This document shows, in pieces, positions 7,457 to 60,420 of a stretch of DNA of 64,000 bases. The stretch is from an uncultured Spirochaetota bacterium (lineage in GTDB: Bacteria; Spirochaetota; Brevinematia; Brevinematales; JAOACQ01), in contig CAWIGG010000004.1 of NCBI GenBank assembly GCA_963835575.1, positions 320,001-384,000 on the forward strand, read 5' to 3'. The notes under the pieces were generated by a model. The model was not told the DNA's origin. It ran no database searches and was given only the letters and a program-made list of their open reading frames with translations. Position numbers and translations under genes: made by a program. The stretch's first letter is position 1. Every line of letters starts with the position of its first letter.

Positions 7457-8194
7457 CAGCCGTAAAAGAAAGCGACCCGATAGAAGAAGTCGAGATGATA
7501 AAAAACCGCGCCCGCGTCCTATTCGACCGTTACGGCGTTCTTTTCAGGGAGCTCATCGCGAACAAACTGCCGGCCCTGCAGTGGGGCAGGCTCCTGAAGG
7601 TCCTCCGGCTGATGGAACTTTCCGGCGAGATCATCCCGGGCTACTTTTTCGAAGGCATACCCGGCCTCCAGTTCGCCTCCCATGAGGCCTTCCGCTTTCT
7701 CAATAAGGTGCTGCCGGAGGATTCCGTTTACTGGCTGTGCGCCGTCGACCCGGCGTCCCTCTGCGGCATCAAGCCGGAAGGATTGAGGCAGAAATTCCCT
7801 AGAAGGATTTCATCTAATTATATGGTTTTTCATGGAAGGGACCTGGTCCTGACAATCGAAAGGGACGGCAGGGCGCTCGAATTCACCGTTGAACCGGGCC
7901 TGCCTCAGATTCAGAAGTACCTGGAGGTATTCAAGACGCTCCTGACAAGGGAATTCAATCCCCTTTCTGCCGTCCGTGTGGAGAAGATCAACGGCATCGC
8001 TGCGGCGGAGAGTCCTTATAAAGAGGATTTGAAGAAGTTCGGGTTTCAGGCAAGCTATAAGGGACTGGAATTGTGGAAGTATTAGAATTATAAAAGATAA
8101 CTATAGTATTTAAACACTTTTGTTTTTTAACACGAAGAGCACGAAGATTATTAACGATTCATTGATTATCGGATTGAAAATTCTAACTAATGGC

Positions 8195-8268
8195 TCTTTT
8201 TTGTAATATCCAATTCCACACGGATGGGCGCGGATGAGGCGGATTCGCGCGGATTTTATTTTTTCATA
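8195..8268 (+). repeat. 9-nt-periodic CGGAT repeat arm, copy 1
   Basis: TCTTTTTTGTAATATCCAATTCCACACGGATGGGCGCGGATGAGGCGGATTCGCGCGGATTTT; direct repeat of 8798-8877. Confidence 0.85.
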
Positions 8269-8352
8269 GTCGGAAATTTATTTAATTAATTCGGTACTTA
8301 AAGTTATCTGACAAGACCAATATATAAACCACAAAACACAAGAGCACGGAGG

Positions 8353-8493
8353 CTTGATACAATATATTTTGATATTGTTACAGTTTTTGAATATAATATT
8401 ACTCCGGCGGACAGAAGATTACTCAGAAAGATAATATTCGGGAATTTCGATTACATCCTATCGGAATGGAATAAATTTAAAAGGGGGAAATAA
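8353..8493 (+). pseudogene. 5'-truncated DUF4160-like gene remnant
   Basis: Frame LDTIYFDIVTVFEYNITPADRRLLRKIIFGNFDYILSEWNKFKRGK* resembles DUF4160 C-termini. Its TAA overlaps the ATG of the DUF2442 gene, the usual partner. No start codon lies before the repeat at 8327-8352. Confidence 0.6.
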
Positions 8494-8756
8494 TGCGGGT
8501 ATATCATAAAATCGATAGAATTGATTTTGAGGGACCAAAAATGATGCTTATCGTTGATGGGAAAAAATACATTATCGATATTCTTAAACAATCCAGAAAA
8601 TTAGCCAAAGCCGATATAAAAACAAAAATGAACTTTCAAATATCTCCTTCCGGGTATGGAATACATTGGCCGGAAATCGATGAGGACCTTTCAATTGACG
8701 GGCTGATCGGGAATAAAGCAATAAAATCAAAAAAGCTCACGACTAAAATTTCTTAA
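8493..8756 (+). CDS. DUF2442-family protein (putative antitoxin partner of DUF4160)
   Basis: Signature ISPSGYGIHWPEIDEDLSIDGL; 87 aa. Confidence 0.8.
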   Translation: MRVYHKIDRIDFEGPKMMLIVDGKKYIIDILKQSRKLAKADIKTKMNFQISPSGYGIHWPEIDEDLSIDGLIGNKAIKSKKLTTKIS

Positions 8757-8797
8757 TAAATTCTCATGTTGTTGAATTGAATATTTAAATTCATGAT

Positions 8798-8877
8798 TCT
8801 TTTTTGTAATATCTGATTGTTCACACGGATACGCGCGAATGAGGCGGATTTGCGCGGATTTTAATTTGTATTTCATA
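8798..8877 (+). repeat. 9-nt-periodic CGGAT repeat arm, copy 2
   Basis: TCTTTTTTGTAATATCTGATTGTTCACACGGATACGCGCGAATGAGGCGGATTTGCGCGGATTTT. Confidence 0.85.
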
Positions 8878-8882
8878 TTGTA

Positions 8883-11402
8883 TTACTTAAAGAATTTCTT
8901 CAAGTCTTCTTCCTCTTTGCCCTGTTCGACAAGATAGAATTCTACACTATCATTAATCTGCCCGAATGGGAGTTCCAATTGTTCACAATGTTCAATGGTT
9001 TTTCTTTTCTTCTGCTCAGTCATAAAATTTAAAACTTTTTGCTTATATAATGTATCTGCATTTCCAGCCAAATGTTCGCCTTTGCTTTCAAGAATATAAA
9101 CTAATTCAAGTTTACAAGTATCATTTTTCTTTGCAGCTACAAAGTCGGGGCGGAGTTTGTATTCCTGCCATCCTTGGATAGAATACCAATTTCTTGAAAC
9201 CTTATTGCGGAACCACCAGAGTATTTTTTCCTGTTTGTCGAGAATATCACCAACTGTTTGTTCAAGCGTATTCATTGCAGAAAGGTCAACATCATCGAAA
9301 AGGTAATATTTATAGGGATTGGGCATACGTCCGACAACAATATAATCTTCTTCGGGTATTTTAAAACCAAGATCAGGGTCATCCGACACGGCAAGAATAA
9401 TTTTCTTTGTTTTTAGGTAATCAACAAAAAGTTTTTCTTCAAGTTTTACTTTTTCTTTTGAAAGCAGTTCGAACATAAAAGCGGATATATAACCGAAATT
9501 TTCTTCCACTTTTTCTTTCCCAATCCCGGCAATTAAAGCGTCAATATGGTTTGAAGCTAATTTTCGCGCAAAGAATGGGTTTTCTGTCAGTTCTGTATAA
9601 CGGCGTGTAAGGTAATCGATGTTGATTTCTTTTATACCATTTATTTCAGTTCTTTCTAACTTGGCTGTAACCATACTCGATTCATCAAGAGTAATAATAA
9701 TTGAATGACGTTCTTTTGTTTCTTCGCTGAATGAAGCTGAAAGACGATCAATGAAACCGTTAATCCGGAAAGAGGAAAAATCTATAAACGGTTTTATATC
9801 CAGTTCATAAGAAAAACGGTGTTTCCGTTCTCCTTCATCAATCATTACCCATACTGGAAGATAAAAAGCGCTTTCATATTTTGATTTAAATTCTTTACGG
9901 ATATTTACCTTTTTCGTTTTGTTTATTTCGTTGTTGTCGCTCACCTTTATTTTTGTAATTAAGTCTTCAAGTCCTTCGTTTTTAAATCCTGTATCAACTT
10001 TTTCCAGAATGGAGCGGGTGTCGCCCTTGGAATAATAGATATAACTTTCATCCAGTTCGGGAATACCCGTTTTTCGCGCAAAAGGCTGACGGAGAATCCG
10101 TCCTACAAGCTGGGTAATTCCGGTATCGGAATTGACATTTGGAATAATGCCGAGAATATACGCAAAGGAGCAGTCCCAACCCTCGCGGAGGGCTTCTTTA
10201 GTTATAAGATAGCGTATATTACAGTCCGGGGCGAAAAGGTTTTTATCTTCAATATCATTCTGCGCGCTTGTTTTTATGGCGATTTCATCCGGGTTTATTT
10301 CCAGTTCCTGCAAAAACTCCTTCACATCAAGGCTATGAACGCCGTGTTTGCCGCGCTGGTCTTTTCCCGTAGATTCCACCTGAATAAGCGCAATAGGTCT
10401 GATATAAAGTCCTGAGTCCTGGCGGTATTTGATAGTTCTTTTTTCCAGAGCGTCCCGGTGAGCTTTTATCTCCCTGAGCATGGATTTCCAGTCGTCTTCT
10501 TTACGGCCTGAAGGCGGAATAATGTGCATATCCAGCTTGACCATTTCCTCGTCTTTCAGTTCAAGGCCGGAAATGCTCACATGAATATTCATTTCCGCTT
10601 TCGGCGTAGCGGTTAGCCCGAGAATCATTTCCGGATTGAGCCCGTCAATGGTTTTACGCGCCATATCCGAAAAGACTTTGTGGATTTCATCAATGATAAT
10701 AAAAGGTTTTGAAAGGCGGATAGCGTTACCGAGGCTTGTTCGTACAACCGGCCCGATTTCAGTTAAGAGGTCGAGGTTCGGACAAATTTTTAAAAGTTCG
10801 GCATGAAGATCATACCGGTTATCGGAAGGAAAAAAGCTCTCAAAACCGCCAGAGTCCTGAAATACCTTAAGGGCTTCTTTGCCGTTCTGCCTGCTGATAG
10901 ACTGGATCATAACGAAAAGAACAACAAGGTTTTCCTCTATATCATTTGTGGTTAGTCTTTGCCCTTTTTCCAGTATCAGCGTCTTGTTTCCGCTGGCCTG
11001 GTCGAGGAGCTGGCGGAGCGGGTTAGCCTTATCCCGCAGTTTCTGTACCGTCTGTGAATAAATCGTTTCACTTGGGACAATCCAGACGACAAGTCCCGTC
11101 CGCTTACGGGCAAAAATAGTTTGATATTCGCGGATTGCTTCAACCGCCAGAAGGGTTTTACCGCCCCCCGTAGGCACTTTCATAATAATACGGGGATAGT
11201 ATTCATTAAGGCCGTTTGTACAGCGGTCTTTATATTCTTTATTTAAAGTCTGAAAAGTGGTTTGTACCCAGTTCAGCGTATGCCGCATTTCGGCAGGCAG
11301 GGCTTTCCGGGCCGTATCAAAAGCGTCTTTTGTTTCCCTTGCTTTGGAGTAAAAAGATTTAAGCTCCGATATTACCTTGACCTGGTAATTCTTGAGGAAC
11401 AC
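8883..11402 (-). CDS. res: Type III restriction endonuclease Res subunit (SF2 helicase plus PD-(D/E)xK nuclease)
   Basis: Motifs VPTGGGKT, IIDEIH, LTATP, LREGWD and QLVGRILRQP; C-terminal PDF...ILESKG; GTG start 2 nt after the mod stop. Confidence 0.8.
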   Translation of the reverse strand: MFLKNYQVKVISELKSFYSKARETKDAFDTARKALPAEMRHTLNWVQTTFQTLNKEYKDRCTNGLNEYYPRIIMKVPTGGGKTLLAVEAIREYQTIFARKRTGLVVWIVPSETIYSQTVQKLRDKANPLRQLLDQASGNKTLILEKGQRLTTNDIEENLVVLFVMIQSISRQNGKEALKVFQDSGGFESFFPSDNRYDLHAELLKICPNLDLLTEIGPVVRTSLGNAIRLSKPFIIIDEIHKVFSDMARKTIDGLNPEMILGLTATPKAEMNIHVSISGLELKDEEMVKLDMHIIPPSGRKEDDWKSMLREIKAHRDALEKRTIKYRQDSGLYIRPIALIQVESTGKDQRGKHGVHSLDVKEFLQELEINPDEIAIKTSAQNDIEDKNLFAPDCNIRYLITKEALREGWDCSFAYILGIIPNVNSDTGITQLVGRILRQPFARKTGIPELDESYIYYSKGDTRSILEKVDTGFKNEGLEDLITKIKVSDNNEINKTKKVNIRKEFKSKYESAFYLPVWVMIDEGERKHRFSYELDIKPFIDFSSFRINGFIDRLSASFSEETKERHSIIITLDESSMVTAKLERTEINGIKEINIDYLTRRYTELTENPFFARKLASNHIDALIAGIGKEKVEENFGYISAFMFELLSKEKVKLEEKLFVDYLKTKKIILAVSDDPDLGFKIPEEDYIVVGRMPNPYKYYLFDDVDLSAMNTLEQTVGDILDKQEKILWWFRNKVSRNWYSIQGWQEYKLRPDFVAAKKNDTCKLELVYILESKGEHLAGNADTLYKQKVLNFMTEQKKRKTIEHCEQLELPFGQINDSVEFYLVEQGKEEEDLKKFFK

Positions 11403-11404
11403 TG

Positions 11405-13039
11405 CTAAACCCCCGGACGCTGAAATAGGTTATAGGGTATGCCGACGTATTCAATATTTTTCTCTCTCATATAATCTTCTTCAAGGAAGCAGGCCGGGGC
11501 GTAAACAACAATCCGTTTTTTCTGATTTCCGGCGGCAATCTTTTCCGCAAGGCTTAAATTAAGCGCCATACGGGTTAGTTCTTCAAAGTCCTGTTTATAG
11601 ACAAGGTATATTACCATATCAGCGTGTTCACCGACAAAGTAAGTCTTTTCATTGATAGCAGTCTTGTTTTTCAGACTCTCGCCTGTACAGAGATAATACA
11701 CATACTCCGCAAACTGTTTGTATTCCGGTAATTTCCCGGATAATAGAGTTTCAGCGTCGATGGGAATGCCAACCCGGTAATACTGAAAGCCGGAATCATA
11801 ACCGTATTTCTCAATAGCCCGCTTGACCCGCTCGCGCGTTATGTCCTTGCAGATGTTTTTTTTAGGCTCTGAGGCAGTAGCTTCTGTCATTTGAATGAGA
11901 ATACACTTCCTTTTAATATTTTTATTTTCAATATTTAAATCCATAACAGCTTGCATAGTCGTACCCGAACCAGCAAATGAATCGAGAATGATATCATTAG
12001 GGTTTGAACATAATTGAATAATTCGTTTTATTAATCCAACTGGTTTAGGATTATCAAAAGGAGCATCAAAATCTGGAAACAATTCTTTCAGTTCTTTACG
12101 AGAACTATCTGTATGTCCAACCTCATCATATAACCAAATTGTTAGCGGAACAGTGCCTTTTTGAACTTCATTAAAATATCTTTTTAATTGAGGCGCACCC
12201 AATCCATCTTTTCCAAAAAATACACGCCCTTTATCAATCCATTTTTTCATAGTTTCTTTATTAGTTAACCAACATCGTCCCTTTGTTGGATTATAATCCT
12301 TACCGGTATTTGGATTTTTTATTGGATAATCATAATCCGCCGAATAAGTTTTTACAGTTAAATTATCTGGACGCCAGAATCCTTTGCCATCACTACTATC
12401 AAATTTATAAAGTATATCTTGCTTCTCAGTACGTGGTAAAAGATTTCTCACCCAACCAGTTGAATTACCATTAATTAATTTCTTTTTTGCATAACAAATG
12501 ATAAAATCATGATTATCAGAAAAATATTTTGCATCGTTTGAAGCCGCGTATTTTTTTTGCCATATAATATTTGTAATAAAATTTTCATCACCAAAAAGCT
12601 CATCCAAAACCATACGAAGTGTATGTTGTTCATTATCATCTATTGAAATAAAAATTGCCCCATCATCCGATAGCAGTTCCCTTAAAAGTTTCAATCTTGG
12701 AACCATCATACAGAGCCATTTGTCGTGACGGGTCAGGTCATCCTTACCGACTTCCTTTCCCAGCCATTCTTTGAGCATAGGACTGTTCACATTGTCGTTA
12801 TAAATCCAGCCTTCGTTTCCCGTATTATACGGCGGGTCGATATAAATGCATTTGATTTTTCCGGCGTATTGCGGAAGCAGGGCCTTGAGAGCAAGAAGAT
12901 TATCCCCTTCGATAATTATGTTGCCGTCCGCTTTTTCTGACTGGAAGTTAAGTTTTTCAACCTCGTCCAGGGTATGGTATGGTATTGAAAGGTGGTGGTT
13001 CCAAATGATGTTCTTTCCTTTGAATTGCAGAGTGGGCAT
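11405..13039 (-). CDS. mod: Type III R-M adenine DNA methyltransferase Mod subunit
   Basis: Motifs IEGDNL, YIDPPYNTG, FISIDDNE, FDNPKP and LDSFAGSGTT (beta-class order). Confidence 0.88.
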   Translation of the reverse strand: MPTLQFKGKNIIWNHHLSIPYHTLDEVEKLNFQSEKADGNIIIEGDNLLALKALLPQYAGKIKCIYIDPPYNTGNEGWIYNDNVNSPMLKEWLGKEVGKDDLTRHDKWLCMMVPRLKLLRELLSDDGAIFISIDDNEQHTLRMVLDELFGDENFITNIIWQKKYAASNDAKYFSDNHDFIICYAKKKLINGNSTGWVRNLLPRTEKQDILYKFDSSDGKGFWRPDNLTVKTYSADYDYPIKNPNTGKDYNPTKGRCWLTNKETMKKWIDKGRVFFGKDGLGAPQLKRYFNEVQKGTVPLTIWLYDEVGHTDSSRKELKELFPDFDAPFDNPKPVGLIKRIIQLCSNPNDIILDSFAGSGTTMQAVMDLNIENKNIKRKCILIQMTEATASEPKKNICKDITRERVKRAIEKYGYDSGFQYYRVGIPIDAETLLSGKLPEYKQFAEYVYYLCTGESLKNKTAINEKTYFVGEHADMVIYLVYKQDFEELTRMALNLSLAEKIAAGNQKKRIVVYAPACFLEEDYMREKNIEYVGIPYNLFQRPGV

Positions 13040-13278
13040 AACCGGCTCCTTATATTTACCCGTCAGTAAAAAAAGTAAAAGCGCATCAATCTAATGGATA
13101 TTTTATAGTAAACTAATTTTAAATACAAAATTTTTTTAACTTTATTATATTTATTAATTATTCTGCATAAAATATCCGCTCCCGAGGCCATTTTCCTCCT
13201 GGCTATAATCTGTACATAAAATAACTCAATATCAAGTCGTGTTATCCGTTAGTATAATAATAGAAGAGAGGCACATGT

Positions 13279-13545
13279 TTTTGACAAGGATGTCAAAACC
13301 GACGCATAAAGCCACGCCCAGCACCACTTTGATTGCCTGTCCTCAAAGTGGTGCTGGGCAAGGACGGCGACATAAGGAGGCTATTTTATTAAGGAACCGT
13401 TTTTTAAAAACCGTATAACACACCTCCATACGATCCCGATTGCTTCGTATGAAAATGGCCTCGCCCTGTTTTCTTTCTTTAGCGCGATATTTCTTTCTTT
13501 TCGAAAAGAAAGAAATATCGCAAACCCCCGACAGCCTGTCGGGAA
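13279..13545 (+). other. Highly structured intergenic element (candidate ncRNA or palindromic mobile unit)
   Basis: Hairpins at 13279-13298 (AGGA loop), 13316-13359 (17-bp stem), 13484-13521 (38-bp perfect palindrome) and 13527-13543; four AAGGA motifs. Confidence 0.55.
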
Positions 13546-20745: not shown

Positions 20746-20833
20746 GCTGCCCGGATTAACACTCCGGTTTTTATACACTACAAAGATCACCAAGAGGCAC
20801 TAACCAGGTTTTCCTTGCTCTGCTTCATTATTG

Positions 20834-21036
20834 AATCTTCCGCTAAGCCACGCGAAGTCACGCCAATATAAAATATTCTATGCCTCTATTCAATTACCCT
20901 TTGAGTCAATTAGTTTTTTAATATGCTATTTTTCCTTATCACTAATACTCAATGCATACTAAGTGTCACAAACCATATGTACCCTCAATCCCTTATATTA
21001 TATTCGCGTCTATTCGCGTGTATTAGCGGATTATCC
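20834..21036. repeat. Inverted-arm element (CGCGAA 9-nt period), copy 1
   Basis: Left arm 20834-20866 and right arm 21003-21036 are identical to 53825-53857 and 53966-53999. The two arms are imperfect inverted repeats of each other. Confidence 0.85.
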
Positions 21037-45111: not shown

Positions 45112-45573
45112 ATGGAAAAAATAAAAGTATTATTTGTCTGCATCCATAATTCGGCGCGGAGCCAGATGGCCGAAGCTTTTATGAATAAATTGGGCGATGA
45201 TCGATTCACGGCCGAAAGCGCGGGCCTGGAACCCGGAAAGCTCAATCCGCTTGCCGTGGAAGTCATGAAGGAAACAGGGATCGATATTTCCGGAAATAAA
45301 ACCAAAAGCGTTTTTAATTTTCTGAAGCAGGGGGAAACCTATGATTATGTCGTCACAGTCTGCGACGAAGCCTCAGGAGAACGGTGCCCCTTTTTCCCCG
45401 GAAAAACTGTCCGTCTTCACTGGTCTATTGATGATCCCGCCGCGTTCGAGGGAACAGATAAAGAAAAACTGGAAAAAACAAGGGTCGTCAGAGACTTGAT
45501 AAAGGAAAAAATCAAGGATTTTATAGCAAACTATCAGGATGGGACAAAATTGAAGCCTTCTATATCTCTGTAA
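45112..45573 (+). CDS. arsC: Arsenate reductase (LMW-PTP fold)
   Basis: Motifs [21 protein letters not shown]...CPFFPG and DDPA. Confidence 0.85.
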
Positions 45574-45580
45574 TAGGGCC

Positions 45581-45723
45581 GTCATTGCGAGCGCCCGGTT
45601 TTCTCCATTGCCTGTTAGTTTGATGCGAAGCAATCTGTCAATTCATTAAGCTATCTTTTTTGCAGACAGATTGCTTCGCGCTGCTGTCAGTACCGAAATA
45701 CAATGCAGGATGCTCGCAATGAC
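45581..45723. repeat. GTCATTGCGAG...CTCGCAATGAC palindromic (REP/RPE-like) element
   Basis: Outer IR GTCATTGCGAGC/GCTCGCAATGAC and inner IR GCGAAGCAATCTGTC/GACAGATTGCTTCGC. Confidence 0.8.
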
Positions 45724-46004
45724 TGCCTTTGTCCTGAATTCTCTTCACTTTCAGCATGCCTTAATAGAGAGTAAATTATCAGTGTAATTCTGTGAAACTT
45801 GTGGTGAGCCCGCCGAATCCATTCCGCGGCTAAATTGGAATTAAATAAAATCAGAATTCCTCCTGATTCCAAGGATTTCCATGAAATTACCATAAAAAAG
45901 TACCGGTTTTATTTCAGGCATAAAATCCCCGATATAGAAAAGAGTGATTTATCCGGAATATTCCCTGATAATTACCGGAATACTTGATAAAAAAGGTACT
46001 CTGA

Positions 46005-47495: not shown

Positions 47496-47691
47496 CCATG
47501 TATAATTAAAAAAATCCTTTTTTAACTACCCTCATCAAAATCCAGCCATTTTTCATTTATTTTTTTAAGTCAAGTCCACTTAAAATTCTTTACAAATCGG
47601 AATAAATTGGATAAAATACCACTGTTTCATATTAGCGCGGCATGCATAACAGGATTATAAAGCCGGCTTTTTTGAATGGAGAGGAGAGTTT

Positions 47692-49731
47692 ATGGCTTTA
47701 TCTAAAGGCACTTCCGATCAGGATGGAGGGCCTTCGCTTTTTTCAAAACTTCGGTCATTCATCATCGGCAAACCGAGAAATCCGCAGGATAGAACAATTT
47801 TTCATAAAATATCCCTGATCGCCATTTTTGCCTGGGTGGGTCTGGGCGCGGACGCCCTTTCCTCATCATCATACGGCCCAGAACAGGCTTTCCGTGTTGT
47901 CGTCAATTATCCCTTTCTCGGCCTTTTTGTCGGTCTGGCGACAGCCATCACAATTCTTATCATCAGCGCCAGTTATTCGCAGATCATCGAGCTTTTCCCC
48001 GGCGGCGGGGGAGGATACATTGTCGGCAGCAAGCTTCTTTCTCCGACAACAGGCATGGTTTCCGGCTGCGCGCTGATGGTGGACTATATCCTGACCATCG
48101 CCGTTTCCATAGCCAGCGGCGCGGACGCCATATTCAGCTTTTTTCCCATTCATTTCCTTAAATATAAAATCTATTTTTCCATCTTCTGCATCATAATCCT
48201 GATATTAATGAACCTCAGGGGTGTAAAAGAATCCGTTTCAATTCTCGCGCCGATTTTCGCCATTTTTATACTGACGCATGTTTTTCTTCTTCTCTACGGG
48301 ACTTTCTTTCATGTATCCAATTTTTCAGGCGTTATCCAGTCATCTTACCAGGATTTTAATAAGGTTAAATTAAATCTCGGGTTGATCGGGGCCCTTGCCC
48401 TTTGTGTCAAGGCTTATGGAATGGGGGCCGGCACATATACCGGTATAGAATCCGTTTCTAACGCCATGACGATCCTCCGGGAGCCGCGCGTTCAGACGGC
48501 AAAAAAGACAATGGTCTATATGGCCGTATCGCTGACAATTATGGCCTTCGGAATTATGATTATCTATCTCCTGTATAATGTCCATCCCGAAACCGGCAAG
48601 ACCCTGAATTCCGTAGCATTTGAAAAAATGATGTCCGACTGGCCGCCTTTTGTAAAAAACATTTTATTGTTTTTAACCCTCTTATCCGAGGCGGCGCTTC
48701 TTTTTGTCGCGGCTCAGGGCGGTTTTCTGGCCGGCCCGAGGGTTCTATCCAACATGGCCATCGACAAATGGATGCCGTCCCGTTATTCACAGCTCTCAAA
48801 CAGGCTGGTCACAGAAAACGGCGTTCTGGTTATGGGCGTCACGTCCCTGTTGGTCCTGATCATAACAGGCGGGTCTTTAGATGTTCTGATCATCCTGTAC
48901 AGCATCAATGTGTTCATCACTTTCAGCATTTCCCAGCTGGGCATGGTCAGGCACTGGTGGATCAGCAGAAAGAGCGAAAAGAAATGGGGCCGGAAATTGA
49001 TAATCAACGGGATCGGCCTCCTCCTCAGCGTTTCGATCCTGATCTCATTCCTTGTCACCAAGCTGAACGAAGGCGGATGGGTCACTTTAGTCATCACGGG
49101 TATTTTGGTGGCGTTTTCATTCTGGGTAAAAAACCAGTATTCCAAAGTGGAGAAGCAACTTAACCGCCTGAACTCACTACTGGAAGCAGTGGAAAATTCC
49201 GAGCATATATCAAAACTTTCCTTCGAGGATTACAAAGATTTTAAAGGAAAAATCGACAAAAACGGTAAAACGGCTGTTTTATTAGTCAACGGTTATAACG
49301 GGACAGGGCTTCATATTTTATTCGGCATACAGAAACTACTGGGTTTCAGCACCTTTAAAAATTATGTCTTTATCCAGGTCGGCGTTGTTGACGCGGGCAA
49401 CTTTAAAAGTGTGGAAGAAGTTGACCACCTGAAGCAGGACATTCAAAAGAGCGTCGATACATACGCGGTCCTGATGCGGAAGACAGGATTTTATACTGAA
49501 ACATTCACATCGCTGGGCACAGACGCTGAAGAAGAGATCATGGCGCTCACTCCGGAAATCCTCAAGCAATTCCCCAATTCCATCTTTTTCGGCGGACAGC
49601 TTGTCTTTTCAGAAGCAGGCCTCTTTACAAAATTCACGACGAACCTCCTCCATAATAACCTTATCTTCAGCCTGCACGAAAAGCTTTATTACAAAGGGGT
49701 CCCTTTTGTTCTTCTGCCGATCAGGATTTAA
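47692..49731 (+). CDS. APC-superfamily permease, KimA/YdaO-like potassium importer
   Basis: Motifs GADALSSSSYGPE, GGGGYIV, DYILTIAVS and TGIESVSN; soluble C-terminal domain. Confidence 0.75.
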   Translation: MALSKGTSDQDGGPSLFSKLRSFIIGKPRNPQDRTIFHKISLIAIFAWVGLGADALSSSSYGPEQAFRVVVNYPFLGLFVGLATAITILIISASYSQIIELFPGGGGGYIVGSKLLSPTTGMVSGCALMVDYILTIAVSIASGADAIFSFFPIHFLKYKIYFSIFCIIILILMNLRGVKESVSILAPIFAIFILTHVFLLLYGTFFHVSNFSGVIQSSYQDFNKVKLNLGLIGALALCVKAYGMGAGTYTGIESVSNAMTILREPRVQTAKKTMVYMAVSLTIMAFGIMIIYLLYNVHPETGKTLNSVAFEKMMSDWPPFVKNILLFLTLLSEAALLFVAAQGGFLAGPRVLSNMAIDKWMPSRYSQLSNRLVTENGVLVMGVTSLLVLIITGGSLDVLIILYSINVFITFSISQLGMVRHWWISRKSEKKWGRKLIINGIGLLLSVSILISFLVTKLNEGGWVTLVITGILVAFSFWVKNQYSKVEKQLNRLNSLLEAVENSEHISKLSFEDYKDFKGKIDKNGKTAVLLVNGYNGTGLHILFGIQKLLGFSTFKNYVFIQVGVVDAGNFKSVEEVDHLKQDIQKSVDTYAVLMRKTGFYTETFTSLGTDAEEEIMALTPEILKQFPNSIFFGGQLVFSEAGLFTKFTTNLLHNNLIFSLHEKLYYKGVPFVLLPIRI

Positions 49732-49758
49732 AGGCAGATATTGTATTTTATTTTTTTT

Positions 49759-49863
49759 GCCACTGAATTTCACAGAAGAGCACGGAAAAAACATTAAACA
49801 GTCAAAAGAGTTATTTGGTTTTCATCAATAATAATTCCGTGTTTTTCTGTGTCATTCTGTGGC
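49759..49863. repeat. Empty inverted pair of 9-10-nt-periodic CACAGAA/CACGGAA arms
   Basis: GCCACTGAATTTCACAGAAGAGCACGGAA (49759-49787) versus the reverse complement GCCACAGAATGACACAGAAAAACACGGAA (49835-49863); 47-bp spacer. Confidence 0.75.
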
Positions 49864-49984
49864 TGATCCTGTAATATTCCCATATTGATATTCACTTTAT
49901 AGTTTATCCTGGATTGACTAAGAAAGGGCGTTGTATTAAACTATAATCCATTGAAAAGTTAATCCAGTAGATAAGGAGCCTCTC

Positions 49985-50485
49985 ATGTCTTTAAAAAAAG
50001 TCGGTATTATCATGGGAAGCGATTCCGATCTTCCCATAATGCAGGAAACCGCGGATATGCTTAAAAAATTCAATATTCCCTTCGAAATGACCGTTATATC
50101 GGCCCACCGGACACCTGAAAAGGCCTTTGAATACGCCCGGACAGCCGAGGAAAGAGGTTTGAGTGTCATCATTGCCGGCGCGGGAGGCGCGGCGCACCTG
50201 CCCGGCGTGATCGCCGCTTTAACACCTCTTCCGGTGATCGGCGTGCCGATCCTTTCCAAAAGCCTCTCCGGAATGGACTCGCTTTTTTCTATCGTACAGA
50301 TGCCGAAAGGCATACCTGTCGCAGCAGTCGCAGTCAACGGCGCCGCCAACGCGGCCATACTGGCCGTGCAGATGCTGGGCATCGGTGATGAAAAAATAAG
50401 ACAAGCTGTAAAAGAATACAAGGAAAAATTGAAGGAAGAAGTGGCGGAAAAGGCGAAGAAGGTAGAGGAAACTTCAAAAAATTAA
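49985..50485 (+). CDS. purE: N5-carboxyaminoimidazole ribonucleotide mutase
   Basis: Motifs [29 protein letters not shown] and SIVQMP.GIPVA; TTGACT-N17-TAAACT at 49914-49942. Confidence 0.96.
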
Positions 50486-52054
50486 CCACCAAGATCACAA
50501 AGAGCACGAAGGACCACCAACGGGGATTAACGGCACTTCATTTTCTAACAAAAGATTTTAATTAACTATTCTCTATAATAATATCCGATTGTTCACACGG
50601 ATCAGACGGATTGGGCGGATTTGCGCGGATTCGGGGGGACGAATTCAACCACAGATTTCACAGACGCCGTGGTGAGCAAAGTCGAACCATTACACTGAAG
50701 GGAAAATAAATATGATGGGCAGTATCTAGCTAATATGATTTTATTATTTGCAAATGAGGTGAGTAAAGGAGTATAATTTTAACGGATAATGAGTTATATT
50801 TGTATATTTTGAGTTGGGCTAAAGCGGTGCACAATCATTAATATTTCTGGAGTAATTTATGATTAAACCAAAAATATTTATCAGTTGTGGACAAGATAAA
50901 TCATCTGATGAATATAAAATAGCTGAAATAATTAAAAACAAAATTGATGATACTGATAAATATATTGGTTATGTTGCAACACTTGAACAATCAAACAAAG
51001 GTTTATTAAATAATATACTATATGAACTTGAAACTGCCGAATATTTTATATTTATTGATTTTATAAGAGAAAAATTACTTGATAAAAATGATAATTTTAT
51101 TGGTTATAGAGGTTCATTATTTACAAATCAAGAATTAAGTATAGCTTCATATTTTGGAATTGAAACAATTGCATTTCAAGAAAAAGGAATCAAATCTTAT
51201 GACGGAATGATTGGAGCCATGCAATTAAATGTTCAAAAACATCATGTTTTTGAACCAAATGAAAGAAATATTTTACCTGATAAGGTGATTGATGAAATTC
51301 AAAATAGATTTACACCATTATGGAAAAATAAAATTAACTTATCAGATATCAAAATTGTAAATAATGTTAAAAAATATAGGATCATTAATTTTTCTCAAAA
51401 AGAAGATTTTTTTGCTAATCATTATCAAATTAAAGTTGAAAACCTTCATAAGGATAAAATTGCCTTAAATTGTTACGCATTTATTGAATCAATATTAGAT
51501 TTAGAAAATAATACACCTATTCAAACTCAAACAGTAGAATTAAAATGGGCAGGTGTTATTAATATTCCTAATGTTTCAATAATTAATCAGTCACATAGAA
51601 TGCTTGATGCCTTCTTTTATGATGTCGCCTACCCAAAGAAAATATATTTTTGCAGTTATAGTGATTCAGATGAAAATCTTCCTCCTTTAGAATCTTCCAA
51701 TAAATATAAAATTTGCTATATGATTGTTTCTTCTAATTTTAGAATTGAAAAAAGGAATTATATAATTGAATTTATTAATAATATATGGCAGATGAATCCC
51801 GAATAATACGTGAAAAGTGGTATTCACCTAAACACCATTCTCCTGAATCTATCTTGTCTCACAAAAGCACCAAATACTACCAAAAAAGGCGGCTTTAAGA
51901 AAATTAAATCCTATAAAATCTGTATCAATCAGTGAAAATCTGTGTAAACAATCGGGGTAACTAGAAAGAAAGATTGATTAATAATCATTGTTTTACAATA
52001 AAGTGTGTTTAATCCCCAGTTGGTGTTACTTGGTGTTCTTTGTGTCTTAGTGGT
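50485..52054. mobile_element. Putative repeat-bounded cassette with nested inverted arms
   Basis: Outer arms 50485-50531 / 52008-52054 (CACNAAG type ending GGGGATTAA); inner arms 50583-50631 / 51906-51955 (CGGAT type); AT-rich ORF inside. Confidence 0.6.
50859..51806 (+). CDS. AT-rich hypothetical protein with a TIR/NDT-like N-terminal domain
   Basis: KPKIFISCGQ...YFIFID...SLFTNQELSIA follows the FIS...S..v..E pattern of TIR/DUF4062-like folds. Confidence 0.5.
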   Translation: MIKPKIFISCGQDKSSDEYKIAEIIKNKIDDTDKYIGYVATLEQSNKGLLNNILYELETAEYFIFIDFIREKLLDKNDNFIGYRGSLFTNQELSIASYFGIETIAFQEKGIKSYDGMIGAMQLNVQKHHVFEPNERNILPDKVIDEIQNRFTPLWKNKINLSDIKIVNNVKKYRIINFSQKEDFFANHYQIKVENLHKDKIALNCYAFIESILDLENNTPIQTQTVELKWAGVINIPNVSIINQSHRMLDAFFYDVAYPKKIYFCSYSDSDENLPPLESSNKYKICYMIVSSNFRIEKRNYIIEFINNIWQMNPE

Positions 52055-52066
52055 GAAAAAAAAAAG

Positions 52067-53008
52067 CTACTGCGCCGATTTAATCTCTTTCTCGAAATAC
52101 TCAATCGTCTTTTTCAAGCCTTCCCTGAGCGGGACTGCCGGTTCCCAGCCGAGCTTTTCTTTGGCCAGCGAGATATCGGGCTTTCTCTGTTTGGGATCGT
52201 CGGAGGGGATATCTTTATAGACAATCTTTGACTTTGAGTTTGTCATCTCAATAATGATTTTCGCCAGTTCAATAATCTTGTATTCGTCCGGATTTCCCAG
52301 GTTTACAGGCCCTATAAAATTTTCCGATTTCATCATCTTTATAAATCCGCCGATCAAATCGTCGACATAACAAAAACTCCGCGTCTGCTCTCCTTTGCCG
52401 TAAACCGTGATATCCTCGTTTCTCAGAGCCTGAGAAATAAAATTCGACACAACGCGGCCGTCGTTTTGAAGCATCCTGGGCCCGTATGTGTTGAAAATCC
52501 TCACGATTTTTATATCGACATGGTTCAGCCGGTAATAATCCATAAATAGGGTTTCAGCTATTCTTTTTCCTTCGTCATAACAGCTCCGGACCCCTATCGG
52601 ATTGACATGCCCCCAGTAAGATTCCGTTTGAGGATGGACCGCCGGATCGCCGTAAACCTCGCTTGTCGAGGCCTGAAGGACCCTCGCCTTCAGCCTCTTG
52701 GCCAATCCCAGCATATTGAAAGCCCCCATAAAACTTGTTTTAATTGTTTTAATGGAATTGGCCTGATAATGGACAGGCGAAGCCGGGCAGGCCAGATTAA
52801 ATATCCAGTCCACTTCCAGCAAAAGCGGCTCTACGATATCATGGCGGATCACCTCAAAATTCATATTGTCCATCAGGCGGATGATGTTTTTATTTCTGCC
52901 GGTAAAGAAATTATCCACACAGATAACCGTATTTCCCTCTTCCAGAAGCCGTTCGCAGAGAAAACTGCCGAGAAAGCCGGCGCCGCCTGTTACCAGAACG
53001 CTTTTCAT
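52067..53008 (-). CDS. UDP-glucuronate decarboxylase (UXS-like SDR)
   Basis: Motifs [41 protein letters not shown] and [10 protein letters not shown]. Confidence 0.92.
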
Positions 53009-53021
53009 TTTTCACTCTCCA

Positions 53022-53678
53022 TTAATATCTTTTGTCAAAACGGATGGCCGTGACAATTCCATCAACGGGATTCATAAAATTATATCCGAAAACCGGGGAT
53101 TTCGTGTTTTCCCAGTGAAACGAGTTCTTTTTGCCTTCAACCCAGGTGTCATAAAAAACTGTTGCGAGAGGGATCTTCTGATCGTCAGAACCGAATAAAA
53201 ATGTGTTAAAAATATCAATATTGCCTTTGTATTCAAAAAAACCGGCGCTGTTCAGATTGGTATAAATTTTATATTGGACCGGGACAAACAGATAGTTATT
53301 ATCGCCTTTTTCCCGGGCTTCCCAGCGGATGATCTCAATCTTCGCGATATCATAGAGAGAAATACTTCGGATTGAAAGCGTATTTTTCACCCTGTTTGTC
53401 ATTGTTAATCTTAAAGTATTGCTGACATAAAGCATTCCGCTTTCCTCGCTGCCGCCTGCCAGTGTAACCATGGCTTTTACGAGGAACAGATATGAAGTTT
53501 TATTTGCCTTAAAACTATCATTTATATGAATATCTGTCATAAGAGAATCGTCAACAACCGGCTCATCCGGTACTTCAGGGTCTTTAATTGAAGGCTCTTG
53601 AAGAGAATAAAGCGGCTGGAGGGCAATAAAGAACATCAGGAGCAGAATTTGAGCGGCAGTCTTCAAAAAGCTATGCAT
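53022..53678 (-). CDS. Hypothetical exported protein
   Basis: 218 aa; N-terminal signal-like segment; 13 nt upstream of the decarboxylase. Confidence 0.6.
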   Translation of the reverse strand: MHSFLKTAAQILLLMFFIALQPLYSLQEPSIKDPEVPDEPVVDDSLMTDIHINDSFKANKTSYLFLVKAMVTLAGGSEESGMLYVSNTLRLTMTNRVKNTLSIRSISLYDIAKIEIIRWEAREKGDNNYLFVPVQYKIYTNLNSAGFFEYKGNIDIFNTFLFGSDDQKIPLATVFYDTWVEGKKNSFHWENTKSPVFGYNFMNPVDGIVTAIRFDKRY

Positions 53679-53824
53679 GGCATCTTCCTTAATAAAAATT
53701 GGTTACTTAGGATATTGTTCCTTATCGGCAGTTGATTTTACAAAATAAAATCTGGTTCTTATATCAAGCGGGCAATTTATTCATAATTCATAAATTTGAT
53801 AAACCGTCAAGACTCAGAATTACC

Positions 53825-53999
53825 AATCTTCCGCTAAGCCACGCGAAGTCACGCCAAGTGAAAATCTACTATACAAGTATTTTTGATTTTATCTTGTCTT
53901 TATTATTTACATTAGATTACCCGGTTAAATCCGTTTTATTCGTGGTTTTCCTTTCCCGGTTTCCTTTCGCGTCTATTCGCGTGTATTAGCGGATTATCC
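53825..53999. repeat. Inverted-arm element (CGCGAA 9-nt period), copy 2
   Basis: Arms identical to those at 20834-21036 but with a different 108-bp interior; a third degenerate left arm lies at about 54005-54032. Confidence 0.85.
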
Positions 54000-54164
54000 A
54001 GTTTTCCCTAAGACACGCGAAGTCATGTCAAATGATAATACATTTAATAAATTAAAAAACTCAGATCCTGCAATAATTATTTCTTTTGATTTGTTTATAT
54101 TTTTTGTATTCATCCGATATTCTTAATGGCAAACCGCAACGGAAAATGAAGAACGCCGGGTTTG

Positions 54165-54184
54165 TTTCAACAAGGATGTTGAAA
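54165..54184 (+). promoter_or_regulatory. CsrA-binding hairpin in the flgN leader
   Basis: TTTCAACA-AGGA-TGTTGAAA contains ACAAGGAUGU; a second AGGA lies in the SD (CAAGGAGG). Confidence 0.6.
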
Positions 54185-54205
54185 AAATAACCAAGGAGGG
54201 TTAAT

Positions 54206-54718
54206 ATGGAACTGGGAATGGATTACCTCAAATCGTTTAAGGAGCTGCTGAAGCTTGAAGCCGGATATCTTTCGGAGCTGGTAGCGCTGGAAGAAGAAAA
54301 GTATGACGCTCTCAAGCAGGTTGATATTACGCTTCTCATGAAAGTGAACACTAATGAAGAGGATATTCTTCAGCATCTCGCTTCCATAGAAAGAAAAAGG
54401 AAGGATCTGATATTGAACCTTTCTAAAATTTATCATTTTAATCCGAATCTGTCGCTTACGGAGCTGTTTTCCTACATTATGGATGAAAACAGCCAAAGCT
54501 TGAAAAATGAACTGATTGAGCTCCGGACAAAAATTAAAAACGAGATCGGCAAGCTTCAGATTTCAATGCATGAAAATTCGCAGATCATCCAGGCCAACCT
54601 GGAAATCATTAATCTGACAATGAATTTCGCGAACCGCAACGCGCAGAAGGAAACGTACGATTATAGAAGTAAAAAAGAAAGCAAGGAAAGCATCTATCTG
54701 GTAAATCAGATAGCGTAG
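54206..54718 (+). CDS. flgN: Flagellar export chaperone FlgN
   Basis: Helical 170-aa protein with L.ALEEEK..AL...D and N..IIQ..L; directly upstream of flgK. Confidence 0.75.
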   Translation: MELGMDYLKSFKELLKLEAGYLSELVALEEEKYDALKQVDITLLMKVNTNEEDILQHLASIERKRKDLILNLSKIYHFNPNLSLTELFSYIMDENSQSLKNELIELRTKIKNEIGKLQISMHENSQIIQANLEIINLTMNFANRNAQKETYDYRSKKESKESIYLVNQIA

Positions 54719-54727
54719 GAGAAGAAT

Positions 54728-56629
54728 ATGCTGTCAACATTTAATGGAATTGAGGTCGGGAAAAAGGGATTGATGGCCAACAATGCCGGCCTGCAGATCA
54801 CGGGCCATAATCTTTCGAACGTGGAAACGGAAGGCTACAGCCGGCAGAAGGTCAACCTCACGACATTTATCCCGATTTACGATCCCAGCGCGAACCGGGT
54901 GGAGACTCCCGGCCAGTACGGTACAGGCGTCGTCGTTGAGGACATCCAGAGGGTCAGGGACCAGGCCATCGACGACCGCATTAATTATGAAAAAGGCGGC
55001 CTCGGGTTCTGGGAAATGAAACAGCAGTATCTCCATCTGATAGAAATGATCCATAATGAACCGAATAAGCCGAACCTCCGCACGGTCCTGGACGAATACT
55101 GGGAAAGCTGGCAGAAAGTCGCCGCCGACCCGACGGAAAGGGCATCGCGCGAGGAATTGATCCAGAGAACGAAAGTCCTGGCTGAGACGTTCAAGCACAA
55201 CTATGAGTCCTTGACCGATCTGCGGAAAAACGCCAATAATCTCGTTGACCAGAGAATAAACGAGATCAATCATATGGCTTCGGAAATTGCTTCGCTCAAT
55301 GTCCAGATCGTCAAATCGGAATCGATGGGCGATAATCCCAATGATCTTTACGATAAAAGGGACCTTCTCATAGAAAAGCTTTCAAAATACGTGGATATCC
55401 GCGTTGAAAGAAATAATAAACATGAGACGATCGTTTACATCGGTGCGGAAAACCTGGTCCAGGGCGAGCTGGCCAATAAGATCAACGCGGTAGGAAACCC
55501 GGATAATGAAGGTTATACAGACGCGCTCTGGGAAGACGGGCGGAAGGTGAAGCTCGGCTTGGGTGAACTGGCCGGCCTCGTCTCCGCGCGCGACGACGAT
55601 CTGAAATCTTCCATCCAGAACCTCGATTCTCTGGCGATCAACCTGACGGACGCGACCAATGAAATACACCGCGACGGTTTCGGCCTCAATCTGACAACCA
55701 ATAATAATTTCTTTAAAGAGCTGCCGATCACGCCTTACGCGAACGGCAATTACGATTTCACCAACGACGGCGTTGTAGACGGCACGGCCCTTTTTAAAAT
55801 CAGCGGAACAGAAAAAATAGACGAAAACACTCTAATAGGCAGCGGCGGAACATTGAACTTCGGCCCTGCGGCGCCCGCCGGCCCCAATATCGTGATCAAT
55901 TACAACGCAAGCGATAAAATAAAAGATATTATCGCCCGTATTAACCAGTCGGACGCGGGCGTTGTCGCTTACCTTAACCATAAAAGCGAGCTGTCATTTA
56001 AATCCAAATTCCCGTCCGACCAGAATTATCCCGATTTTGTCATCCGCCATGTCGAGGACAGCGGGAACTTACTTGTCGGCATCACCGGCATGCTCGGCGC
56101 GTCGGGCCCGCAGGGGGCTTTTGACTACAAGAATGTCGGCGATATCGTTAAATTCAGTGTGCCTTCATTTAATATATCATTTACGCCGGAAAAGCACCCT
56201 TCAGGCTGGCTGAATATAGATGATAAGATTGTAGCCAACCCCGACACGATAGCCGCCTCGGCGGGCATGGACACGACCGGAAGCGGCAAACCCGACAAAA
56301 TGAACGGCATCAGCGATAATAGGAACGCCCTGGCCATAGCCGACCTCAGGCAGAAGGACCTTATGTTCGAAAGCCAGTCCACGATGGGGGATTTTATTAA
56401 AACAATGGTCGGCGATATCGGCACGCGCTCAGAATCGGCAAAGATAAATATGGATAAAAACAGCGCCGTTGTGGACAGCCTCGTTAATCTGCGGCAGGAA
56501 ATCAGCGGCGTGAATATAGACGAGGAAATGACAAAGATGCTGATGTTCCAGCATGGCTACAACGCTTCGGCAAGGCTCGTCAGCACCGTCGACCGGATGA
56601 TCGAAACGATCATCAGAATGGGAGCGTAA
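54728..56629 (+). CDS. flgK: Flagellar hook-associated protein 1
   Basis: Motifs TGHNLSNVETEGYSRQ, GTGV, PNDLYDKRDLL and SGVNIDEEM...FQHGYNASAR. Confidence 0.95.
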   Translation: MLSTFNGIEVGKKGLMANNAGLQITGHNLSNVETEGYSRQKVNLTTFIPIYDPSANRVETPGQYGTGVVVEDIQRVRDQAIDDRINYEKGGLGFWEMKQQYLHLIEMIHNEPNKPNLRTVLDEYWESWQKVAADPTERASREELIQRTKVLAETFKHNYESLTDLRKNANNLVDQRINEINHMASEIASLNVQIVKSESMGDNPNDLYDKRDLLIEKLSKYVDIRVERNNKHETIVYIGAENLVQGELANKINAVGNPDNEGYTDALWEDGRKVKLGLGELAGLVSARDDDLKSSIQNLDSLAINLTDATNEIHRDGFGLNLTTNNNFFKELPITPYANGNYDFTNDGVVDGTALFKISGTEKIDENTLIGSGGTLNFGPAAPAGPNIVINYNASDKIKDIIARINQSDAGVVAYLNHKSELSFKSKFPSDQNYPDFVIRHVEDSGNLLVGITGMLGASGPQGAFDYKNVGDIVKFSVPSFNISFTPEKHPSGWLNIDDKIVANPDTIAASAGMDTTGSGKPDKMNGISDNRNALAIADLRQKDLMFESQSTMGDFIKTMVGDIGTRSESAKINMDKNSAVVDSLVNLRQEISGVNIDEEMTKMLMFQHGYNASARLVSTVDRMIETIIRMGA

Positions 56630-59000: not shown

Positions 59001-59351
59001 ATGCCCCAGAATATTGATCCATACAGGGATTATCCGACAACAACAACTCTCAGCAATACATCTCTCTTCAACGGAGTGATTAGTTTCAAAAATTCTCTGC
59101 GGATTGACGGTGAATATACCGGCAAAATAGACGCCGACGGCCTTCTCGTTGTCGGGCCGCAGGCCAAAATCAAAGGCGACGTTGTCTGCGAAGAAGTCAT
59201 CCTCGGCGGCGAGATCCGCGGAAATATCTTTGCCAAAAAGCGCCTGGAGCTTCTCGAAAGCGCGAAACTTTACGGGGATATCAAAACAGCCAAGTTAAAA
59301 ATCGCGGACGGCGTTATTTTCGAAGGAAAATGCGAGATGACGCAGAAATAA
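59001..59351 (+). CDS. Bactofilin (polymer-forming cytoskeletal protein)
   Basis: LRIDGEYTGKI...VG..AKIKGDV....VILGG.IRGNI...LEL...AKLYGDI....L.I..G..FEG.C.M. Confidence 0.88.
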   Translation: MPQNIDPYRDYPTTTTLSNTSLFNGVISFKNSLRIDGEYTGKIDADGLLVVGPQAKIKGDVVCEEVILGGEIRGNIFAKKRLELLESAKLYGDIKTAKLKIADGVIFEGKCEMTQK

Positions 59352-59360
59352 AAAATCCTG

Positions 59361-59389
59361 TTGACATAATTTATCTTTGAACGTACAAT
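59361..59389 (+). promoter_or_regulatory. Sigma70 promoter
   Basis: TTGACA-N17-TACAAT. Confidence 0.75.
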
Positions 59390-59443
59390 GTATCTCATGA
59401 AAAGCTGGCGTGTGCGGTCCTGCCTTTCTTCAGGAGGTGTGAA

Positions 59444-59779
59444 ATGGTGAATGTAGAGAAAAAAGGCGAAGTCGTTGTTTTAAAAGTATCCGGAAGGCTT
59501 GAAATCAATCAGGCCCTTGAATTGGAAGAGATAATCAATACCCATATAAATAACGGCAGCAAGTTTTTTATTTTTGATCTGGGCGATGTCCATTATCTTT
59601 CCTCAAGCGGGATCCGCGTCTGCATCGCCACTCTCAGGCAGTTAAAAGACATTAAGGGAAGAATGATCCTTTCCAACCTCAGCTCGAACGTCATCAAAAC
59701 GCTTAAAATCGTCGAGCTGGACGGCCTTTTTGAGATCATCAACTCGACGGACAAAGCGGTCAAAGCATTATCGAAATAA
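59444..59779 (+). CDS. STAS-domain anti-sigma-factor antagonist
   Basis: Motifs VSGRLE and DLGDVHYLSSSGIRV. Confidence 0.88.
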   Translation: MVNVEKKGEVVVLKVSGRLEINQALELEEIINTHINNGSKFFIFDLGDVHYLSSSGIRVCIATLRQLKDIKGRMILSNLSSNVIKTLKIVELDGLFEIINSTDKAVKALSK

Positions 59780-60195
59780 TGAGCTTCCGCTTTTTACTCG
59801 CCCTTGCCGGTTTTATACTTATTGTCGGTAGCGGTTCGGCCTGGCTCTTTTATAATATTATAAAAAAGAAAAATCTTCTAAGGGATCTCCTCAATCTTCC
59901 CAAGGAAAGAAGGCTTTTCTGGTATAAGCTCCGCGAGGCGGGTTTTACAATCATATCACACAATACCATCAAAGAAATAGAACTTATCATAGACGGTATG
60001 GATAAAAGCTATTCATTAAAAGCGGATTTTATCGTCAAAAAAAAGAACAGGAAATATGTCTCTCTTTTCGCCCCTCACTTCGAGGAAAAAGAATACCTTA
60101 AACAGCTTTTTGCCTACAGCATCGCTTTCAACGCCGACGGGGTGATTTATTATAATGAAAGCGAAAAGAATTTTACCGTCTGGGAAATGAAGTAA
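59779..60195 (+). CDS. Hypothetical membrane-anchored protein
   Basis: N-terminal transmembrane segment; ADFIVKK...QLFAY, a degenerate PD-(D/E)xK-like pattern; TAATG coupling to the STAS gene. Confidence 0.55.
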   Translation: MSFRFLLALAGFILIVGSGSAWLFYNIIKKKNLLRDLLNLPKERRLFWYKLREAGFTIISHNTIKEIELIIDGMDKSYSLKADFIVKKKNRKYVSLFAPHFEEKEYLKQLFAYSIAFNADGVIYYNESEKNFTVWEMK

Positions 60196-60243
60196 ACTTA
60201 CCTTTTTTTGCCGACCCCAATTCGGCAGGATGAGTGTTATTCT

Positions 60244-60420
60244 ACAGGAAGGCACGAAGGCGCGAAGGGCTACGCCTGTAAAATAAAAGATTGATAAATC
60301 AAAATCCCTTCATATTTAATTAAGATTTTTAAATCGACCCCAATAGAACAGGATCAGCAGGATGTAACAGGATTTGCAGGATGGGTATTAATGTTACAGG
60401 AAGGCACAAAGGCGGTAAGG
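60244..60420 (+). repeat. Cluster of periodic left arms (CACGAAGG 8-nt and CAGGAT 9-nt types)
   Basis: CAGGAAGG CACGAAGG CGCGAAGG; AACAGGATC AGCAGGATG TAACAGGAT TTGCAGGAT; CAGGAAGG CACAAAGG CGGTAAGG. Confidence 0.75.

Follow-up and report, generated by a model that had tools for sequence, protein, structure and literature searches.

Paired word-array repeats around foreign genes in a Spirochaetota genome, and a candidate PD-(D/E)XK nuclease linked to them

What places single, AT-rich, foreign genes between the housekeeping genes of an uncultured Spirochaetota bacterium? The question is raised by a window of 64,000 nt (positions 320001-384000 of contig C4 in genome G000, 4.39 Mb and 94% complete), in which a sequence-only reading had described intergenic arms of short repeated words bracketing foreign genes, and had proposed a possible cassette-capture system that gains and loses cargo. 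The arms belong to a genuine element family of recent expansion, tied strongly and directionally to foreign genes and with a candidate enzyme open to testing, the GxxExxY nuclease (PF13366); the capture chemistry and the mobility of filled units are inferred. We put at about one half the probability that the elements are linked to this nuclease and have an interior that serves as a payload slot, filled locally.

Word arrays and the elements they bound

Strict chains of at least three words number 11 in the window against 0.16 ± 0.37 across 100 shuffles, with a word list derived in part from the sequence-only reading itself. A weight matrix trained on 417 arms, all outside the window, finds 20 arms at a score of at least 16, against 0.65 (maximum 3) in 20 shuffles; arms are present at every place where they had been listed, and one of the 20, at 23345, lies deep within a gene and is probably a chance match. 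Genome-wide, the matrix detects 713 arms, 662 of them not deep in long open reading frames (ORFs). The proposed period of 8-9 nt is not borne out, since 892 of 1,012 word steps measure 10 nt (547) or 9 nt (345) and only 73 measure 8 nt. Nor is there a single arm family; we distinguish about five related sub-families, A (CGGAT), B (CACGAAG), C (CGCGAA), D (CACAGA) and E (CAGGAT), with the common core C-R-C-D-R-A. The leader said to be shared by several arms is exact at 8196 (plus strand) and 37744 (minus strand) and partial at 8807 and 50579. An Rfam search of the arms gave no family match; their consensus is a tandem word array and not a GTAG/CGTC-tagged short palindrome.

Adjacent arms of the same family face inward in 86 cases and outward in 11 across the genome. 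Short inward pairs number 146, with a median of 122 bp, and 21 of 120 short-pair interiors have a relative covering at least 60% of their length, which shows that short elements were copied whole. Empty pairs, for which interiors of 47-136 bp had been reported, are indeed found, with measured interiors of 49, 108 and 136 nt. Left and right arms differ within C and A elements, nested arms often stand in mirror order, and the outermost family agrees between the two sides for 24 of 46 filled pairs (350-6000 bp) against 9.5 (maximum 18) on shuffling. The proposal of a non-autonomous element family inserted between genes is upheld; arms stand at the edges of lineage-specific inserts, at 3' gene ends and operon junctions, as described below. 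No target-site duplication was detected across 119 elements (longest shared flank word 4.81, against 4.73 ± 0.10 when shuffled), though old copies may have lost theirs.

The elements lie close to 3' gene ends, at a median of 55 nt from the stop codon versus 102 nt to the next start, and at purE and xerD the arm leader itself supplies the stop codon. Element polarity does not agree with GC (guanine plus cytosine) skew. In 21 of 25 co-directional contexts, C-type elements are oriented with host transcription; 15 of 119 short pairs lie between divergent genes, where the background is about 15%, and thus show no bias toward such positions; and the arms are predicted to pair into RNA hairpins, with the segment 49755-49870, an empty D-type element, folding as a single hairpin of -39.7 kcal/mol. 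These properties would suit arms that serve the host as regulatory or RNA-structure sites, whether for a global regulator or for integration host factor (IHF) or HU, or that belong to another enzyme, with GxxExxY as the commonest passenger. We consider such an account quite improbable: arm positions are unconserved among congeners, and word type tracks the nuclease clade across host families, as detailed further on.

Foreign genes inside the arms

The tie to foreign genes depends on arm orientation. Genes below 36% GC, here called AT-rich, make up 15 of 20 inward-bracketed genes, 0 of 23 outward-bracketed ones and 461 of 2,878 unflanked ones. When five nuclease genes are set aside, the inward-bracketed count becomes 10 of 15, and three of the other five are insertion sequence (IS)-like. 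Host-GC genes have arms on both sides in 1 of 1,919 cases. Association with variable cargo had been set beforehand as one point on which the sequence-only reading could fail; the whole-genome scan of arm profiles finds that association to be strong. What lies between arms is variously a nuclease gene, a short spacer, a foreign gene, another element of the family, an IS element or an entire island. A Pfam scan of 40 of the 64 candidate cargo genes gave a match for 24, including PIN (3), kinases (2), DNA methylases (2), GmrSD, AlbA_2, Panacea, IrrE, Gp49 and a nucleotidyltransferase; type IIG enzymes occur in two bracketed islands, and a GIY-YIG fragment lies inside an arm nest. IS256 and other IS inside arms carry their own ends, and only the GxxExxY gene family is flanked repeatedly.

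Foreign genes would also accumulate if the arms were a passive landing pad, that is, nuclease-linked repeats resembling MITEs, the miniature transposable elements with inverted repeats, with foreign DNA surviving inside them because a tight operon offers it no other neutral place. Inside arms there are indeed IS copies as well as a self-mobile integrative element, and homologues of the two window cargo genes form attC-like cassettes at 7 of 42 loci elsewhere. Moreover, most AT-rich runs (158 of 215) lack arms, inward ones flanking 20 runs on both sides and 27 on a single side, and DNA inserted between the partners of repetitive extragenic palindromic (REP) dimers appears in the part of an earlier study drawn on here (Di Nocera 2013, PMC3733652). 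We nonetheless judge this account unlikely. Filled and empty versions diverge immediately past the final word: beyond it, filled elements have lost the empty interior, instead of carrying it in two parts on either side of the cargo. Filling also differs strongly by sub-family, with cargo beside 24 of 68 A-type arms versus 24 of 219 C-type arms. In the congener G002, the inward pairs inspected, chosen from a list and not as a census, comprised nine long filled pairs, all nine holding AT-rich foreign genes, against three short ones.

Arms, elements and cargo within the window are as follows.

8131-8146, plus strand: B-type arm of two words (score 19.5), bounding on the left the 6.8-kb insert that separates lhr from lspA
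8196-8253, plus strand: A-type arm of four words, with leader (score 32.4)
8330-8352, plus strand: degenerate B-like arm, recognised by eye only (score below 10), occupying the place expected for the first half of the DUF4160 gene
8368-8472, plus strand: C-terminal half of a DUF4160-like gene, a cut cargo (PF13711 positions 29-65 of 65, E 0.032, below cut-off)
8493-8756, plus strand: DUF2442 gene, GC 0.34, firm family assignment
8799-8858, plus strand: A-type arm, a direct repeat of 8196-8253 (82% over 92 nt)
8883-13039, minus strand: type III restriction-modification pair (PADLOC REase_III + MTase_III), on the inner side of the arms
20779-20803, plus strand: weak outer B-type arm (score 16.2)
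20834-21036: empty C-type element between tmk and dxr, interior of 136 nt, 77% like that of another copy
36982-37034, plus strand: left A-type arm, directly after the phoB stop codon
37108-37638, plus strand: foreign gene of 176 aa, GC 0.34, no family; GGCT/ChaC lead only
37685-37744, minus strand: right A-type arm with leader, closing the pair around the 176-aa gene
45776-45830, minus strand: lone D-type arm, broken by a small REP-like insert (score 16.0)
49761-49861: empty D-type element, interior of 49 nt
50487-50520, plus strand: outer B-type arm, with the purE stop codon within its leader
50579-50698, plus strand: inner A-type arm, then D-type arm with REP-like insert
50859-51806, plus strand: foreign gene of 315 aa, GC 0.24, no family; TIR-like lead only
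51918-52052, minus strand: closing arms, A/D-type inside and B-type outside, the mirror image of the opening order
53825-53999: empty C-type element upstream of flgN, followed by a degenerate extra arm at about 54006-54030
60213-60381, plus strand: left-arm stack (short E, B/E, full E)
60495-64000, continuing to about 65005: cargo of a 5,017-bp insert, with a Trypco2-like gene, small ORFs, two IS256 and a PemK-like gene split by the second IS256

The arms at 60.2-60.4 kb, previously taken as direct copies, are left ends; the B and E arms that close them stand beyond the window at 65148 and 65193. Those at 8.1-8.9 kb all share one orientation and no closing partner was found for them, so that membership of the type III restriction-modification pair in the element is uncertain. 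The asymmetric A-type pair around the 176-aa gene also brackets short spacers at C3:68220 and C2:1788615. Among the cargo names given earlier, DUF2442 holds firmly and the DUF4160 half and PemK fall below cut-off, while for 'TIR-like' and 'GGCT-like' Atlas gave leads at 0.83-0.85, and neither Pfam nor NCBIfam gave a match; a sequence search for a solved structure of the 176-aa protein found none.

Other features share the window. The small REP-like insert interrupts D-type words at 45803 and 50671, and 21 of the 71 genome matches of its core lie at most 70 nt from an arm. A distinct CGTC-type palindromic repeat occupies 45580-45720; elsewhere, copies of it bracket a 99-aa GIY-YIG gene (C4:1026200-1027000), a second pairing of repeat and nuclease. 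Two identical inverted IS256 at 61228-64710 enclose two small genes and the start of the PemK-like gene, a possible composite transposon within the arm-bounded insert. A DDE transposase gene (DUF772 + DDE_Tnp_1_6) at 5916-7382 interrupts the lhr helicase, whose C-terminal winged-helix part lies at 7273-8085 and which is a single gene of 1448-1453 aa in congeners. At 13168-13480, between the type III methylase and apbE, stands an unrelated element some 300 bp long whose ends are inverted, and a fluoride riboswitch at 1786-1847 lies upstream of a DUF6062 gene.

Orthologous junctions in congeners exhibit filled, empty and absent states and are not invariant. The junction between a 138-aa gene and hydF is an overlap or a gap of 76 bp in 4/4 congeners versus 5,017 bp here, and the alaS, xerD and ftsK junctions, tight in 4/4 congeners, hold arm-bounded inserts of 4,447, 5,003 and 2,997 bp; arms stand at the edges of all four of these 3.0-5.0 kb inserts. 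The tmk-dxr interval is 2-46 bp in 4/4 congeners versus 463 here, and lhr and lspA are adjacent in 3/3 congeners syntenic there versus the 6.8-kb insert here. Two further islands are rearranged in relatives. The phoB-phoR junction is weak evidence, because the congeners lack this kinase there and the two genes are adjacent only in four distant relatives (kinases 28-31% identical). For the nine filled G002 pairs, the counterparts in G000 are arm-free in two cases, carry a short element in two (one of the same D type, one of B type) and are non-syntenic in five. Four GxxExxY elements of G002 fall at junctions of 11-20 bp in G000, and one of the four is 82% identical to a copy at a different place in G000. 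G002 further holds an 11.5-kb integrase-bearing island within D arms; a 73% identical integrase in G000 has no arms. Direct arms around a DUF4160-DUF2442 pair in G002 were set aside as parts of tRNA-end duplications. Separately, two genes adjacent in genome G004 (L281) are 254 kb apart here (C4:548477 and 802531), each beside inward arms, and arms may mark rearrangement breakpoints.

A PD-(D/E)XK nuclease between matching arms

The window contains no recombinase for the arms, and the sequence-only reading had suggested looking for a consistently linked mobiliser. A candidate exists outside the window. The genome encodes nine GxxExxY genes above the Pfam cut-off, flanked by matching inward arms on both sides in seven cases and on one side in two. 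Across 83 GxxExxY loci with full flanks, both-side arms point inward at 41 and outward at 7; outside this genome, both sides are occupied at 34 of 74 loci and at least one side at 58 of 74. Other mobilisers that had been named fared differently: Y1_Tnp genes, the domain of REP-associated tyrosine transposases (RAYT), gave two weak matches with no arm within 400 nt, and neither intact GIY-YIG nor four-helix-bundle genes have such arms, which also speaks against another enzyme from among these. One four-helix-bundle gene (C6:2181-2498, L010) does lie between inverted tandem arrays, of a different 14-nt unit. The two xer recombinase genes bordering filled elements were likewise considered and rejected, being ordinary host genes in all five relatives searched.

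Word type follows nuclease clade. On a tree of 84 GxxExxY proteins over 124 columns (two of 86 were left out, one a near-copy and one short), word labels change 24 times versus 49.1 when shuffled, and 0 of 200 shuffles came as low; in the 'PGLLES' half of the tree, G is the last letter of the words in all 41 labelled rows, which span many host families. The pattern is evidence of joint inheritance, not of recognition. Among 301 genomes of the phylum, at least 10 word-array matches occur in 31 of 63 genomes with a GxxExxY gene versus 11 of 238 without one, in a hand count in which kin are not independent.

The function of PF13366 is listed as unknown, and the family has been transferred many times between lineages, according to the portion of the source consulted (PMC3424549). 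Its predicted fold is a minimal PD-(D/E)XK nuclease (model pLDDT, the predicted local distance difference test, 89). Matches include Cas4 SSO0001 (E 4e-5) and R.SwaI, the latter with the best, though middling, Z of 7.9 at a root mean square deviation of 3.3 over 116 aligned residues, and D71, E81 and K83 of the D..ExK motif are invariant in 18 rows. A sequence search found no solved structure for GxxExxY. Searched for nuclease remnants, 119 short elements yielded none (best E 0.015), so that these are not simply gutted nuclease elements.

Two nuclease loci elsewhere are worth recording. In G121 (L334:1937-6519), the nuclease gene is preceded by about 15 tandem arm units of 89-92 bp, and beside it a type III methylase gene stands between additional arm arrays. 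In two genomes of one genus (L128, L129), a GxxExxY element stands downstream of alaS in opposite orientations; the 3' end of alaS in G000 bears an arm-bounded island.

How the interior may be filled

Integron cassettes and arrays of attC sites lacking integron integrases (CALIN arrays) are a familiar setting for small AT-rich defence-type ORFs, recognised by their attC sites and by the integron integrase. Small AT-rich defence-type ORFs are common to both systems, but the elements here differ in their inverted-pair brackets, in cargo that extends to gene fragments or multi-kb islands, and in lacking attC halves; the earlier statement that attC is absent holds, with no inverse core found after the stop codon of any of 31 cargo genes. 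The best match to the integron integrase model (TIGR02249) scored 127 bits against a cut-off of 265, in a genome 94% complete. Homologues of the 176-aa gene occur in 14 unrelated genomes and those of the 315-aa gene at 41 metagenome loci, and bracketing arms were found at 0/14 and 0/41 of them, as at 0/13 Panacea loci (three in array-rich genomes) and 0/11 DUF2442 loci. The idea of dedicated integron-like cassettes is thereby not sustained: cargo does not repeat, its homologues are unbracketed, and it consists in part of fragments, IS and a self-mobile integrative element.

The same data bear on a vehicle model, in which arms and payload would move as a unit between loci or genomes in the manner of mobile insertion cassettes (MICs), with GxxExxY acting in trans. 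Matched arms do stand at insert edges; at the xerD junction the stop codon comes from the left arm, and 8 bp separate the end of the right arm from the next gene; no empty arms occur in congeners at the four tight junctions; A-type arms are rarely empty (12 of 68); and the G121 methylase lies between arm arrays beside the nuclease gene. We regard this model as rather unlikely. No AT-rich cargo other than IS and nuclease genes has a close second copy in the genome, and searches of mobile-DNA collections returned no phage-collection match and eight plasmid records, all classed as non-mobilizable. The unbracketed homologue loci also count against it, although most homologues are under about 60% identical, so that recent unit moves would be missed. 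A DNA read set too shallow to test excision showed, over 36000-55500, no joint skipping cargo. One head-to-tail contig junction of C arm ends was considered as a circle and discarded, as it matches a tandem pair standing elsewhere in the genome.

Local filling is favoured because attC and the integron integrase were not found, homologues are unbracketed, divergence begins at the last word, and cut genes and an integrase island lie against or within arms. Taken together, a model of nuclease-linked elements with a locally filled interior emerges. The arms are the two ends of small elements, whose complete form carries a GxxExxY nuclease gene between inward arrays of three to four words spaced about one helical turn apart. 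The nuclease may bind the word arrays and cut at or near the arms, and so spread the elements without target duplication. Payloads would be exchanged at the inner arm edge, most probably during repair of a nuclease cut or hairpin break with incoming DNA, or else with the arms as homology anchors; they would be drawn locally from the general mobile gene pool, useful defence-type ones being kept by selection.

Several observations weigh against this model. Neither activity nor an excision or insertion event was observed. Of the 11 array-rich genomes lacking a strong hit, eight show no GxxExxY match even at E 0.001, one of these eight being G237, with 150 array matches at 99% completeness; such genomes would suit the regulatory or other-enzyme account. 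The genome has no A-type (CGGAT-leader) GxxExxY gene, yet A arms are most often beside cargo, and co-inheritance of gene and arms alone would give the tree result, over only 124 columns. The 400 kb of G121 had arms almost only at the nuclease locus and 200 kb of G062 had one, the GC test being uninformative there. The purE-UXS junction is tight in one congener, and three others hold different genes there without arms. As the congeners are different species, they do not reveal whether arms came first or together with cargo.

By analogy, the set may work like REP doublets forming hairpins (REPINs) and their RAYTs, or like the IS-MITE-MIC series, with a different enzyme class. REPtrons and TIRtrons, as described in the part of the source used here (PMC3733652), are likewise short inverted intergenic hairpin elements near 3' gene ends, with heterodimeric arms and a rare cognate nuclease gene between the same repeats. 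They differ in their partner, an HUH tyrosine transposase where ours is PD-(D/E)XK; their arms are GTAG/CGTC-tagged palindromes where ours are word arrays, and interiors here are often foreign genes or islands. MICs and MITEs, in the excerpt consulted (PMC4337579), share passenger genes or nothing between inverted ends, the lack of their own transposase and a candidate enzyme in trans, whereas no IS-derived ends, target-duplication signal or DDE partner were evident for the elements here.

The word repeat itself is already known. In Geobacter metallireducens, 'class 2 predicted global regulator binding sites' were read as regulator sites unique to that genome (Aklujkar 2009, PMC2700814). As far as the consulted sections of that report go, these are three tandem CACGGAG-type words (the consensus being the reverse complement), in opposite-strand pairs at variable distance, intergenic, with IS insertions near the related class 1 sites; they propose no nuclease link, cargo or mobility, and the pairs list adjacent host genes. 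Compared by eye, the words are of the same class as those of our arms; the leaders differ. What is added here are the cargo statistics and the junction comparisons. Searches of the open literature, which did not extend to subscription journals or bioRxiv supplements, turned up no paper that connects PF13366 with these repeats.

A bolder reading, put forward tentatively and with the odds against it, is that of a widespread element class whose minimal PD-(D/E)XK nuclease would read the 9-10-nt word arrays, swap the interior for foreign genes and move the filled units from junction to junction and from genome to genome: an integrase-free, attC-free capture system that would place defence genes in housekeeping operons. 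Single genes of defence type (restriction-modification, kinases, PIN, GmrSD, Panacea) stand inside such operons here, and arms mark island edges to within tens of bases, so that they could be used to find unknown defence candidates. PF13366 gains a candidate DNA substrate, a testable clade-to-word code and possibly a part in the placement of foreign genes. Should the nuclease prove to move or refill the elements, its transposition chemistry would belong to none of the DDE, HUH, tyrosine and serine classes.

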